Positions 22,901 to 28,900 of a DNA stretch of 64,000 nucleotides are shown here, piece after piece. Each line of letters starts with the position of its first letter. Within the stretch, counting starts at the first letter, position 1. The stretch comes from Escherichia coli (GTDB lineage: Bacteria > Pseudomonadota > Gammaproteobacteria > Enterobacterales > Enterobacteriaceae). The position numbers are program-made. Location of the stretch: NCBI RefSeq assembly GCF_003018115.1, contig NZ_CP027457.1; one strand, given 5' to 3'.

Positions 22901-25900
22901 CGGTGGTTGTCGCCCTGGGAGCTATGTTTGGCAAGATCTTACATGAAACCGGCGCAGTCGATCAGATTGCCGTCAAAATGCTCAAGTCCTTCGGTCACAG
23001 CCGCGCGCATTATGCCATCGGCCTTGCGGGGCTGGTCTGTGCGCTACCGCTGTTCTTTGAAGTGGCGATTGTTCTGCTGATTAGTGTTGCTTTCTCAATG
23101 GCGCGCCACACCGGTACGAACCTGGTGAAGCTGGTAATCCCATTATTCGCAGGCGTGGCGGCAGCGGCGGCGTTCCTGGTGCCAGGGCCAGCGCCAATGC
23201 TGCTGGCATCGCAGATGAACGCCGATTTTGGCTGGATGATCCTGATTGGCCTGTGTGCGGCAATTCCGGGAATGATTATTGCCGGGCCGCTGTGGGGTAA
23301 CTTCATCAGCCGTTACGTTGAGCTGCATATTCCTGACGACATCAGCGAGCCGCATCTCGGCGAAGGCAAAATGCCGTCCTTCGGATTCAGCCTGTCGCTG
23401 ATCCTGCTGCCGCTGGTGCTGGTGGGGCTGAAAACCATTGCCGCGCGTTTTGTGCCGGAAGGCTCTACCGCTTACGAATGGTTCGAGTTTATTGGTCATC
23501 CGTTTACCGCGATTCTGGTTGCTTGTCTGGTAGCGATTTATGGCCTGGCAATGCGTCAGGGCATGCCAAAAGACAAAGTGATGGAGATTTGCGGTCACGC
23601 GCTGCAACCGGCGGGGATCATTCTGCTGGTGATTGGTGCGGGCGGCGTGTTCAAACAGGTGCTGGTTGACTCTGGCGTAGGTCCGGCACTGGGCGAAGCG
23701 TTAACCGGCATGGGCCTGCCGATTGCTATCACCTGCTTCGTGCTGGCCGCTGCAGTGCGCATCATTCAGGGTTCTGCCACCGTTGCCTGTTTAACGGCGG
23801 TGGGACTGGTGATGCCAGTCATTGAACAACTGAACTACTCCGGTGCGCAAATGGCGGCGCTGTCGATTTGTATCGCCGGTGGTTCGATTGTTGTCAGCCA
23901 CGTTAACGACGCCGGTTTCTGGTTGTTCGGTAAATTTACCGGCGCGACCGAAGCCGAAACGCTGAAAACCTGGACCATGATGGAAACCATCCTCGGCACT
24001 GTCGGTGCCATCGTTGGGATGATTGCGTTCCAGCTGTTGAGTTAATTACTGCGACAAATTACTGCGAGCTTGCTCGCAGTAATTCATTTCTCTTTTCTCC
24101 TCTCTTCATCTTTTTGATCTCTCTCGCAAATTTACCTGCAAATAATCCGTTCTAATCACTGCCTAAAGATCGCAGGAGATAAAGATGGAAAAGCACGCAG
24201 CTGAATTGCTTTTACAGCGGATGTTAGGAAATACCACCGCTACTTTCAGGGAAGGGCAATGGGAAGCCATAGACGCGGTGGTGAACCAACGGCGAAAACT
24301 GCTGGTTGTCCAACGCACTGGCTGGGGGAAAAGTGCCGTGTACTTCATCGCCAGTAAAATCTTCCGCGATCGCGGCGCTGGCCTGACAATTATCATCTCT
24401 CCTTTGCTTGCCCTGATGCGTAACCAGGTTGCCGCCGCTGAACGGTTAGGTATTACGGCTGAAACGTTGAATTCTACAAACAGAGAAGAATGGCAGCGCA
24501 TTAGCGATAAGTTGCTGCAAGGTGAGGTCGATTGCTTGCTGGTTTCCCCGGAACGTTTGGCAAACCAGGACTTTATCGAAACGGTTTTATATCCTATAGC
24601 CGATCGTATTGGCTTGCTTGTGGTCGACGAGGCGCACTGCATCTCTGATTGGGGCCACGATTTTCGCCCGGATTACCGACGTATATTAGATATTTTGCGC
24701 CAACTACCTGCGAATACCCCTGTTCTGGGTACAACCGCGACAGCGAATAACCGTGTCGTTGAGGATATCCGTCAGCAATTGGGTGATATTGTGATTCAGC
24801 GTGGAACGCTGGCTCGCGAAAGTTTGGCGCTTGATGCCTTAGTCTTAGGTGAACAGTCATCCCGTCTGGCATGGTTAGCAACGGTTATCCCTCAGTTTTC
24901 CAAATCGGGAATTGTTTATACCCTGACTACTCGCGATGCCGAACTTGTCGCCGAGTGGTTAAGGAAAAATGGTATCAGTGCATTTGCTTACTACAGCGGT
25001 GTGACTTGTGAAGGCGCGGAAGATTCTAATACTGCCAGGGAATATCTGGAGCAGGCGTTGCTGGCAAATAAAATTAAAGTGCTGGTTGCGACAACGGCGC
25101 TGGGAATGGGCTTTGACAAACCGGATTTGGGGTTTGTTATTCATTACCAGATGCCGGGGTCTATTGTCGGTTACTATCAACAGGTGGGGCGTGCCGGGCG
25201 TGCTATAGATTCCGCAGTTGGCATATTGCTTTGTGGTGGTGAAGACCGCGCTATTCATAAATTCTTCCGTGAAAGCGCCTTTCCTGCGGAGGCGCAAATT
25301 CATGAAATACTCAACGTACTTAGCGTGAATGACGGTCTTACCTTACGAGGCATTGAACAACGGACGAATCTCCGTTATGGGCAAATAGAAAAAGCACTGA
25401 AATTATTGGTAGCTGAAAATCCATCGCCTGTGGTGTATACCGAGAAATTATGGCGCAGAACAATTGTCAGTTTTTCTCCTGACCATGAACGAATTAACCA
25501 TTTGATGAATCAGAGAAAAAGTGAGCTGGAAGACGTTGAAAGCTATATCACGACCAAGGAGTGCAAAATGCAATTTCTGCGCCGCGCACTCGATGAGCCA
25601 GGTGCCGAACGTTGTGGTAAATGTAGCAGTTGTCTTCAGCGTCCGTTGTTGTCGCCCGACATTGATAGCGGTTTACTCCATGCGGCAAATTTATTTATTA
25701 AACATGCTGACCTGCCATTAAATCTCAATAAACAGGTGGCAGCTGGGGCTTTTACGCAATACGGATTTAAAGGGAACTTGCCTGCGGGTTTACAAGGATC
25801 TACGGGGCGAATCCTTTCTCGTTGGGGAGATTCCGGGTGGGGAAAGCAGGTAGCACAAGAGAAAAAAACGGGGCGTTTCAGTGATGAGCTGGTGGAGGCA

Positions 25901-28900
25901 TGTGCGGAAATGGTTCGCCAGCGCTGGAATCCGCATCCTGAACCAACCTGGGTATGCTGCGTTCCTTCATTAAGGCACCTCGACCTGGTTCCTGATTTTG
26001 CCCGGCGACTGGCGGTGAAACTTGGCTTACCTTTTATTGATGCCATTGAAAAAGTCGTGGACAATCCACCGCAGAAAATGCAGCAAAACCGTTTTCACCA
26101 GTGTCAAAATCTCGACGGGGCGTTTGTGATTACCCCTCCTTTGATGCCAGGTCCGGCGTTGCTGGTTGACGATATCGTGGATTCTGCATGGACGCTGACA
26201 GTTCTGACAGCACTGTTACGCCAGGCAGGTTGCCCGACGGTTTATCCTCTTGCCCTTGCTTCTACCTCGGTAAAAAATTGATGAATCTTTCAGCCAATGC
26301 ACAAGCAACTCTCCTGCTAACCAGCGATTTTTCTCGCGCGGCGGCGAGTGAGTATAAACCTCTTAGTAATAGTGAATGGGGGAAGTTTGCATTATGGCTG
26401 AAGCACCAACGTATCAGTCCCGCCGATCTTCTGGTGGCGCAACCGCAAGAGAAACTTACAGGCTGGAGCGATCCGCGTATTTCTCAGGAGCGTATTCTTG
26501 GCTTGCTGGCGCGCGGTCATAGTCTGGCGTTGGCGGTAGATAAGTGGCAACGCGCCGGTTTATGGATCATAACCCGCGGAGATGCTGATTATCCCGTTCG
26601 CTTGAAAAACCGATTGCGAACGGATGCACCTCCCGTTTTATTTGGCTGCGGGAATAAAGCATTACTGCAAGCGGAAGGTATGGCGATTGTTGGCTCGCGA
26701 GATGCTCCGACTGACGATTTGCGCTATACCCAACAACTGGCAGCGAAACTGGCCCAACAGGGGATTTGCGTTATCTCTGGTGGTGCGCGAGGTATTGATG
26801 AATGTGCAATGGCGTCAGCACTGGAGGCCGGGGGAACTGCCGTTGGCGTATTAGCTGATAGCTTGTTAAAAACGAGCACGTTAGTGAAATGGCGTGAAGG
26901 GCTTATAGCAGGCAACCTGGTGTTGATTTCGCCGTTTTACCCAGAGGTACGTTTCACCGTCGGCAATGCGATGGCGCGAAATAAATATATTTATTGCCTT
27001 GCTGAAAGCGCAATGGTTGTACGTGCGGGAATGACCGGTGGAACGATAACCGGGGCGATGGAGGCATTAAAACATCAGTGGCTGCCTGTGCAGGTTAAAC
27101 CAAATCAGGATATGCAATCAGCCAATTCACGATTAGTAGAAAATGGGGCGTCATGGAGTACTGAACAGGCTGAGAATGTGACGTTCAGACTGCCAGACGT
27201 TCCTGGGCTGATGTATGACAGAGCACTCCGTAACGCTCAACCAGAACTGTTTTCGCTGCATGAAGATGACGCAAATTACGCAGTAATGCCCGCGTATACG
27301 CCTGTCGATTTTTATCAACTCTTTGTGGCGGAACTGGCGATCCTTGCAAAGGAATCGATAAGTATTGAAAGGCTGGCGTCTTGTACTGGTTTAACCATCG
27401 AACAAATTAGTGTGTGGCTGAACCGCGCAGAAGAAGAGGGAAGGGTTATCCGATTGGGCGAAGGTCATTATCAGTTCAGGTAATAAAACAGGTGCCGCGT
27501 CTGGTTGTGTGCAGCACCTGTTTGAACCTTACCCCTTCATCCACATTCGAATGCCGTCGAGGAACATCTGGGTTGCCATCATCACCAGAATCAATCCCAT
27601 CAGGCGTTCAAGTGCGTTCACCCCTTTCTCGCCCAGCAGACGTAAAAATAGCGAAGACTGTAGCAGGATGACAAAGGTGCCGCCCCAGGCCAGCAGCAGA
27701 GCAATCACCAGATGTCCCATCTGATTCGGGTACTGATGAGACAACAACATCAGCGTGGCGAGAATAGTTGGCCCGGCGACCAGCGGAATTGCCAGCGGCA
27801 CGATAAATGGCTCTTCACCTGCCGGAAGCCCGCTGCTATTTCCTGAAGCGCTGGGGAAAATCATCTTAATGGCGATCAGAAACAGAATGATGCCGCCAGA
27901 AATGGAGACGGTTTCCGCACGCAGGCTGAGAAATGCCAGAATTTTCTCACCCGCAAACAGGAACACCAGCATCACCAGGAGAGCAATAAGCAACTCTCGC
28001 ACCATGATTGCCCGCCGTCTTTTCGGTTCAGTATGTTTCAGTACGGACATGAAAATAGGTAGGTTTCCGAGCGGATCCATAATCAGGATCAATAAAACTG
28101 CTGCAGAAATGATTTCATTCATAACTCAAATTCCCTGATAATTGCCGCGGACTTTCTGCGTGCTAACAAAGCAGGATAAGTCGCATTACTGATGGCTTCG
28201 CTATCATTGATTAATTTCACTTGCGACTTTGGCTGCTTTTTGTATGGTGAAAGATGTGCCAAGAGGAGACCGGCACATTTATACAGCACACATCTTTGCA
28301 GGAAAAAACGCTTATGAAAAATGTTGGTTTTATCGGCTGGCGCGGTATGGTCGGCTCCGTTCTCATGCAACGCATGGTTGAAGAGCGCGACTTCGACGCC
28401 ATTCGCCCTGTCTTCTTTTCTACTTCTCAGCTTGGTCAGGCTGCGCCGTCTTTTGGCGGAACCACTGGCACACTTCAGGATGCCTTTGATCTGGAGGCGC
28501 TAAAGGCCCTCGATATCATTGTGACCTGTCAGGGCGGCGATTATACCAACGAAATCTATCCAAAGCTTCGTGAAAGCGGATGGCAAGGTTACTGGATTGA
28601 CGCAGCATCGTCTCTGCGCATGAAAGATGACGCCATCATCATTCTTGACCCCGTCAATCAGGACGTCATTACCGACGGATTAAATAATGGCATCAGGACT
28701 TTTGTTGGCGGTAACTGTACCGTAAGCCTGATGTTGATGTCGTTGGGTGGTTTATTCGCCAATGATCTTGTTGATTGGGTGTCCGTTGCAACCTACCAGG
28801 CCGCTTCCGGCGGTGGTGCGCGACATATGCGTGAGTTATTAACCCAGATGGGCCATCTGTATGGCCATGTGGCAGATGAACTCGCGACCCCGTCCTCTGC

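Follow-up and report, generated by a model that had tools for sequence, protein, structure and literature searches.

A 64,000-nucleotide stretch of Escherichia coli DNA (RefSeq assembly GCF_003018115.1, contig NZ_CP027457.1; hereafter the window, with positions counted from its first base) carries a variable segment of 3483 bp between gntU and yhgN (24046-27528), which extends from the gntU stop to the yhgN stop and was delimited by comparison with the empty site of K-12-type genomes. Two adjacent, co-oriented genes on the plus strand lie within it. The upstream gene encodes a 698-amino-acid (aa) protein that joins a RecQ-like 3'-5' helicase to a C-terminal phosphoribosyltransferase (PRTase)-like domain (24185-26281), and the downstream gene encodes a 400-aa protein with a DprA/SLOG domain (26281-27483). 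We conclude with high confidence that this two-gene locus is the E. coli rqlH-rqlI operon, equivalent to PsyrTA, a large, non-canonical toxin-antitoxin (TA) module that has already been published and catalogued, in which rqlH (psyrT) encodes the toxin and rqlI (psyrA) the antitoxin. The original prediction, made from the sequence by itself, had placed two translationally coupled open reading frames (ORFs) at 24185-27483, coordinates with which the ORF list and a one-base overlap of stop and start codons agree. It had also described a fusion between a RecQ-like helicase and a ComF- or PRTase-like domain followed by a DprA-like partner, an architecture that Pfam matches and an alignment with GntX support, and its guess at a TA or defence system is in line with the literature on these proteins (Russell and Mulvey, 2015, PMC4670107; Millman et al., 2022, preprint).

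The identification rests on profile matches that span both proteins. The PADLOC PsyrT model (PDLC03928) aligned its positions 5-687 of 689 with RqlH residues 3-697 (1062 bits, E = 0), and the PsyrA model (PDLC03927) aligned positions 1-397 of 398 with RqlI residues 1-400 (671 bits); the next best PADLOC profile on RqlI was ShosA, at 94.5 bits, and another ShosA model scored 31.7. The protein lengths, 698 and 400 aa, are those of RqlH and RqlI from E. coli F11 (Russell and Mulvey, 2015), and the operon, gene order, stop/start overlap and positions of K49, D148 (in the DEAH motif) and DIVD663, the residues mutated in F11 RqlH, are also the same; the two loci differ by allelic variation alone. 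When compared with urine-isolate alleles at the same site, RqlH was 97.6-98.7% and RqlI 98% identical, and the difference from other E. coli lineages is about 1-2.5% at the protein level. In addition, the 3485-bp insert of construct SG127 (Millman et al., 2022) corresponds to window positions 24045-27529, that is, to the variable segment as found in E. coli STEC 1299; its first 399 bases map from position 24045 with 393 identities, and its PsyrA is identical to the window RqlI at 389 of 400 residues.

The generic RefSeq names of the two products, 'RecQ family ATP-dependent DNA helicase' and 'DNA-processing protein DprA', are all that could favor a previously undescribed defence or DNA-processing system, as the original prediction had proposed when it recognized no named system at this locus. 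The profile annotation that it suggested as a check recovered helicase, zinc, PRTase, DprA and SLOG matches along with the PADLOC hits. Given dedicated PADLOC models that match at full length, descriptions of these proteins in 2012, 2015 and 2022, and a locus that has itself been cloned and assayed, we regard the proposal of an undescribed system as refuted, with virtually no probability left to it.

The RqlH protein begins with a RecQ-type superfamily 2 ATPase/helicase core (aa ~20-350; 24242-25234, plus strand) that contains the Walker A lysine K49 and a DEAH motif at 148-151. This region matches the Pfam families DEAD (23-194) and Helicase_C (239-340), and a phmmer search of the Protein Data Bank (PDB) with the full protein found E. 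coli RecQ (1oyw, E 6.6e-54, residues 7-349); the solved structures that match RqlH (RecQ, BLM and RECQ1) cover the helicase core alone. A linker of ~90 aa that is specific to RqlH sets this core off from a RecQ-type tetracysteine zinc-binding module (aa 442-484; 25508-25636, plus strand), for which there is a Pfam RecQ_Zn_bind match (E 1.5e-3) and a Cys-x17-Cys-x2-Cys-x2-Cys pattern that is readable in the translation, with CGKC at 477. Pfam gave no match to an HRDC domain. The protein exceeds the NCBIfam cut-off for the RecQ-family subfamily (TIGR00614, 256.2 versus 219.8 bits), but it is not RecQ proper, since it lacks HRDC and falls well below the cut-offs of TIGR01389 (299.6 versus 640.2 bits) and NF008279 (229.5 versus 1015 bits). 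The same plan was described for Mycobacterium smegmatis RqlH, which has a RecQ-like ATPase connected by the linker to a tetracysteine zinc domain, then a ComF/PRTase-like C-domain, lacks HRDC and shares the Lys49 and Asp148 numbering (Ordonez, Unciuleac and Shuman, 2012, PMC3378886). The mycobacterial enzyme has 3'-5' helicase activity, and its ATPase activity is lost in the K49A and D148A variants; it differs in having no RqlI partner. That report also noted that RqlH is encoded by non-K-12 E. coli strains (Ordonez, Unciuleac and Shuman, 2012).

The C-terminal part of RqlH is predicted to form a ComF-like PRTase domain (aa 509-690, with boundaries taken from the literature; 25709-26254, plus strand) with a putative phosphoribosyl pyrophosphate (PRPP)-binding loop, VDDIVDS, at 661-667. 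The Pfam Pribosyltran match is weak (627-683, E 0.018), and a PDB search with the C-terminal 199 aa returned nothing significant, the best scores (E 0.3-0.4) being those of adenine PRTases. On the other hand, pairwise BLASTP aligned the RqlH C-terminus with the ComF homolog GntX, which is encoded in the window at 59317-60000 on the minus strand (28% identity over 76 aa, E 1e-5), in a region that includes the 'NL..AF' motif of the ComF type together with the PRPP loop, which reads VDDIVDS in RqlH and VDDVVTT in GntX. Assignment of a PRTase domain thus draws on the weak Pfam match together with the alignment to GntX, the PsyrT profile that matches at full length, and mutagenesis in the literature.

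Several PADLOC models for DpdF, a protein of the Dpd clusters for 7-deazaguanine DNA modification, also match the helicase and C-terminal part of RqlH, at up to 310 bits. Assignment of RqlH to DpdF was rejected: the NCBIfam equivalog NF041063 scored 152.3 bits versus a cut-off of 550, no dpd genes lie nearby, and the PsyrT profile scores far higher. Two of these DpdF models, PDLC02869 (74 positions, 178 bits) and PDLC02866 (255 positions, 66 bits), match RqlH residues 462-698 strongly, in the part with the zinc module and the PRTase-like domain. Some PADLOC models labelled DpdF therefore seem to have been built from RqlH-like fragments, and could lead to mislabelling.

In RqlI, Pfam DNA_processg_A (PF02481), the DprA Rossmann domain, matched residues 89-293 (E 2e-51), with an overlapping SLOG family match at 135-273. 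The original prediction had called this protein a full-length DprA paralog. Its central Rossmann/SLOG domain (residues ~86-296) is indeed DprA-like, but DprA homology was undetectable in the N- and C-terminal thirds, and scores below the DprA equivalog cut-offs (TIGR00732, 104.1 versus 191.15 bits; NF008007, 80.6 versus 495 bits) argue against DprA proper. The kinship with ShosTA that had been proposed is evident in the ShosA profile match to RqlI and in the shared toxin and antitoxin domains: both systems pair a PRTase-domain toxin with a DprA-like antitoxin, are associated with DNA damage and filamentation, and have been connected with phage defence. ShosTA toxicity requires the binding of PRPP, and its antitoxin acts through single-stranded DNA (ssDNA) and RecA (PMC11961720, PMC12961424). 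However, ShosT has no helicase and RqlH is a helicase fusion, and RqlI binds RqlH directly whereas ShosA is reported to neutralize ShosT without direct binding. ShosT was also absent from the PDB matches to the RqlH PRTase region at E values up to 10. Assignment of the window pair to ShosTA was rejected on the basis of the fused helicase, the difference between the ShosA and PsyrA scores, and the lack of a ShosT structure match.

The same domains invite comparison, drawn also in the original prediction, with the competence proteins ComFA, ComFC and DprA, which likewise include a helicase, a ComF-type PRTase-like fold (as in GntX) and a DprA Rossmann domain. It has been discussed whether RqlHI is an accessory set for DNA uptake paralogous to these proteins (Russell and Mulvey, 2015), an idea with which the RqlH-GntX alignment and the DprA domain of the partner are compatible. 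The RqlH helicase differs in being of the RecQ type and fused to the PRTase-like domain, and no transformation phenotype is known. We consider this explanation highly improbable, because RqlI falls below the DprA equivalog cut-off, toxin and antitoxin behavior is no property of competence proteins, and natural transformation was undetected in the extraintestinal pathogenic E. coli isolates of the same authors (Russell and Mulvey, 2015).

Two predicted hairpins flank the operon. A terminator-like hairpin with a 12-bp stem and a T-rich tail lies just 3' of gntU (24057-24084, plus strand; terminator scan; folding energy of the RNA -16.6 kcal/mol, z = -5.4), and rqlHI is thus probably transcribed from a promoter of its own, downstream of this hairpin; sigma-70 consensus scans of 24085-24184 and of the 139-bp region upstream of rqlH gave no match. 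A second hairpin (27486-27523), which separates the convergent rqlI and yhgN genes, folds in both orientations (-18.9 kcal/mol on the plus and -21.0 kcal/mol on the minus strand; z = -3.3 and -4.5) and is likely a bidirectional terminator. An Rfam E-value scan of 23500-28300 found no match to a non-coding RNA. The rqlH gene is preceded by an AGGAG Shine-Dalgarno sequence at 24174-24178. The rqlI ATG shares one base (A) with the rqlH TGA stop (...AAATTGATGAAT..., overlap at 26279-26283), an arrangement that would fit translational coupling, and the toxin gene precedes the antitoxin gene as in all paired orthologs described by Russell and Mulvey (2015). In the RefSeq annotation, from its prokaryotic pipeline (PGAP), the DprA-like gene begins at 26188 and encodes a 431-aa product that is 31 codons longer and overlaps rqlH by 94 nt. 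Since the PsyrA profile aligns with the 400-aa form almost end to end and the published RqlI has 400 aa, 26281 is the better start.

The function of this operon in E. coli was studied in the extraintestinal pathogenic strain F11. When F11 RqlH was produced without RqlI in MG1655, which lacks both genes, the cells mounted an SOS response, became filamentous, underwent mutagenesis and lost viability, and these effects were worse at low oxygen (Russell and Mulvey, 2015). Toxicity was abolished by deletion of residues 509-690, by the substitution DIVD663EVME, or by D663A, which changes a putative PRPP-binding residue, but the helicase-dead K49A and D148A proteins were still toxic, suggesting that the helicase helps restrain the PRTase. 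RqlI neutralized RqlH through its residues 1-320, the two proteins co-immunoprecipitated, and their genes were shown to form an operon. Bacteria deleted for both genes showed no detectable loss of fitness, whether in vitro or in mice, and the authors discussed the equivalence of RqlHI to Pseudomonas syringae PsyrT/PsyrA (Russell and Mulvey, 2015). These experiments include tests that the original prediction had proposed for the window locus: toxin and antitoxin behavior was observed as it had anticipated, but toxicity depended on D663 rather than on the helicase residues K49 and D148. The genotoxicity of RqlH and its binding and neutralization by RqlI were shown for the F11 allele; in the window allele, RqlH is 97.6-98.7% and RqlI 98% identical to other E. 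coli alleles.

Window positions 23500-28200 were compared by megablast with 5426 complete E. coli genomes. The flanks were found in 5425 of these, and the full rqlHI segment in 1641 (30%), always at the gntU-yhgN site; nearly every carrier genome had it in a single chromosomal place, and plasmid matches were absent. K-12-type genomes have 56 bp between gntU and yhgN, as opposed to 3483 bp in the window. This agrees with the earlier view of an accessory locus absent from K-12, and the homolog survey that had been proposed shows the module in a part of these genomes, at a single fixed site in the core genome instead of a defence island. Population surveys also score PsyrTA across E. coli phylogroups, with enrichment, for example, in E2. 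The two alleles part directly behind the stop codon of gntU and become collinear again at that of yhgN, and the K-12-type spacer is an unrelated 56-bp hairpin that has no match in the window, even with three mismatches allowed.

The original prediction had spoken of a module inserted between gntU and yhgN. The extra 3483 bp are real, but a repeat search of 23900-27700 turned up neither direct repeats at the flanks nor a target-site duplication nor inverted termini, there are no integrase or mobility genes, and the GC content across the locus (0.45-0.52) is similar to that of the flanks. The lack of mobile-element scars and the unremarkable composition leave a recent horizontal insertion unsupported. 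Divergence from two urine isolates was equal to that of flanking genes: rqlH and rqlI were 95.4-98.4% identical at the DNA level, and synonymous divergence (dS) was 0.09-0.18 for rqlH and 0.04 for rqlI, compared with 0.12 for gntU and 0.035-0.038 for asd. The ratio of nonsynonymous to synonymous divergence (dN/dS) was 0.06 for rqlH and 0.2 for rqlI, indicating purifying selection on both genes. From these comparisons, rqlHI looks like an old, vertically inherited and selectively maintained accessory locus, and an ancient locus that K-12-like lineages later lost is as possible as insertion.

This pattern bears on the proposal that the operon is a selfish addiction cassette of no present benefit to its host. 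The toxicity of RqlH without RqlI, the absence of a fitness effect of the double deletion and the report that a psyrA deletion could not be transformed (Millman et al., 2022) would be expected of such a cassette. In O157:H7 strain BB24-1 (L006, 3686-5810), rqlH is a pseudogene, with a 1-bp deletion at the equivalent of window position 24700 and a 29-bp insertion at 25972, and rqlI is intact, so this strain keeps the antitoxin of an inactivated toxin, which is also in keeping with addiction. However, the locus is chromosomal, at one fixed site and without the hallmarks of a mobile element, and a dN/dS of 0.06 for rqlH over a core-gene-like divergence is unexpected for a useless toxin. Therefore, we judge an addiction cassette to be a decidedly unlikely explanation for the E. 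coli operon.

Relatives of RqlHI are found in other genomic contexts. The E. coli IncF plasmid NZ_OX030731.1 (L008, 2694-12773) carries the gene order hsdM, hsdS, rqlH-like, dprA-like, hsdR, and the helicase it encodes is 60% identical to the window protein. This divergent pair makes up a second lineage of PsyrTA in E. coli, nested in a type I restriction-modification (R-M) operon, a classical defence context. Both this arrangement and the decayed toxin with an intact antitoxin in O157:H7 are expected for a toxic defence or TA module. Full-length homologs were found on 12 plasmids, from cyanobacteria, Acinetobacter, rhizobia, actinomycetes and haloarchaea, and a tblastn search for phage-borne homologs gave partial matches to the helicase core and none of full length. 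The Halomicrobium salinisoli plasmid (L009, 4965-7049) encodes a full-length RqlH homolog with 43% identity and no adjacent DprA-like gene. This extends to archaea a pattern of RqlH alone that was described for many Gram-positive bacteria (Russell and Mulvey, 2015).

A role for this module in phage defence is suggested by work on homologs. PsyrTA '(also called RqlHI)' was listed, as a relative of ShosTA, with the TA systems that take part in resistance to phages, and the PsyrTA of Bacillus sp. FJAT-29814 (SG128) is marked 'v' in the 'observed defense' column of Table S2, denoting phage protection (Millman et al., 2022). By analogy with ShosTA, RqlHI might act in a manner akin to abortive infection. 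The RqlH-RqlI complex would be inert in uninfected cells, and a phage cue would release the PRPP-dependent activity of RqlH. The helicase, together with its DprA-like partner, might sense abnormal ssDNA or replication intermediates as such a cue; alternatively, the cue might be loss of the antitoxin after host shut-off. The released activity may then damage DNA or perturb nucleotide metabolism or pools, halting replication of both the cell and the phage.

Several observations weigh against a defence role for the E. coli allele. SG127, which covers window positions 24045-27529 and includes the native upstream region, is marked 'x', for no defence observed, in the same table (Millman et al., 2022), so the phage challenge that the original prediction had proposed for the cloned locus was already published, with a negative outcome. 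PsyrTA of E. coli NILS69 likewise gave no detectable protection, whether assessed by deletion from its native strain or by expression in MG1655, which brought about a growth defect. The operon sits among core metabolic genes (gntRKU, yhgN, asd and glgB in the RefSeq annotation), outside any defence island, and the occurrence of RqlH without RqlI in many Gram-positive bacteria and on a haloarchaeal plasmid is a poor fit to an obligate TA pair. Furthermore, enzymatic activity of the PRTase domain has not been reported, PDB searches found no solved structure of RqlH, and our literature search found no dedicated mechanistic paper on PsyrTA. An anti-phage role is documented for the Bacillus homolog and would be extended to the E. 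coli allele by analogy; alternative explanations for this allele, whether in DNA maintenance or modification or as a largely selfish TA cassette, keep real weight.

For example, RqlHI could be a cooperative module for DNA maintenance or modification, in which a helicase-tethered PRTase alters a nucleotide in DNA, RqlI and the helicase resolve the product, and toxicity reflects an unbalanced pathway. A model of this type was proposed by Russell and Mulvey (2015; their Fig. 10), and it would accommodate the DNA-centered phenotypes of RqlH (SOS induction, mutagenesis and aggravation at low oxygen), the two studies in which the E. coli allele failed to protect against phages, the long vertical inheritance of the locus, with purifying selection, at one fixed core-genome site, and the many taxa that have RqlH alone. 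Nevertheless, loss of both genes is without detectable cost, no DNA modification has been detected so far, the Bacillus homolog does protect against phages, and the plasmid homolog lies within a type I R-M operon, so we consider a maintenance module possible but unlikely. A more specific form of this idea is that the E. coli allele is not anti-phage at all, and that RqlH is an enzyme, guided by its helicase and dependent on PRPP, whose target for chemical modification (by phosphoribosylation, for example) is DNA or DNA-bound nucleobases, with RqlI processing the product. Such an activity would be compatible with the two negative phage tests, vertical residence under purifying selection, the DNA-centered phenotypes and the absence of a known PRTase substrate; we regard it as a long shot.

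Other features of the window are separate from rqlHI. An ataR-ataT type II TA pair (88 and 175 aa, the toxin annotated as an acetyltransferase in RefSeq for the near-identical strain F9792) lies between livJ and panM at 1380-2180 on the plus strand. A gene annotated as an Hcp1-family type VI secretion system (T6SS) effector (tssD, at the yhhZ position) and followed by yrhA is found at 16233-17902 on the minus strand; it encodes an orphan Hcp-domain protein, and no T6SS cluster of the window lies near it. By the F9792 annotation, the glpD-glgP interval (39184-41214) holds a hypothetical protein together with a pseudogene, a truncated 'substrate-binding domain-containing protein'. At 54878-56962 on the plus strand, malQ is an intact 694-aa ORF that is annotated as frameshifted in the otherwise nearly identical F9792 assembly, the two sequences being out of register at ~55161-57100; the window would accordingly derive from a close relative or from a corrected assembly.

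The assignment of this locus to RqlHI means that, in RefSeq, the names of a RecQ family helicase and a DprA protein mask a named TA or defence system. The questions that it raises thus concern a known system, and include the activity of a helicase-fused PRTase and why the operon is retained by ~30% of complete E. coli genomes although this allele gave no phage protection. If RqlH were to modify DNA, an idea already floated in 2015, this would be a chemistry not yet demonstrated.

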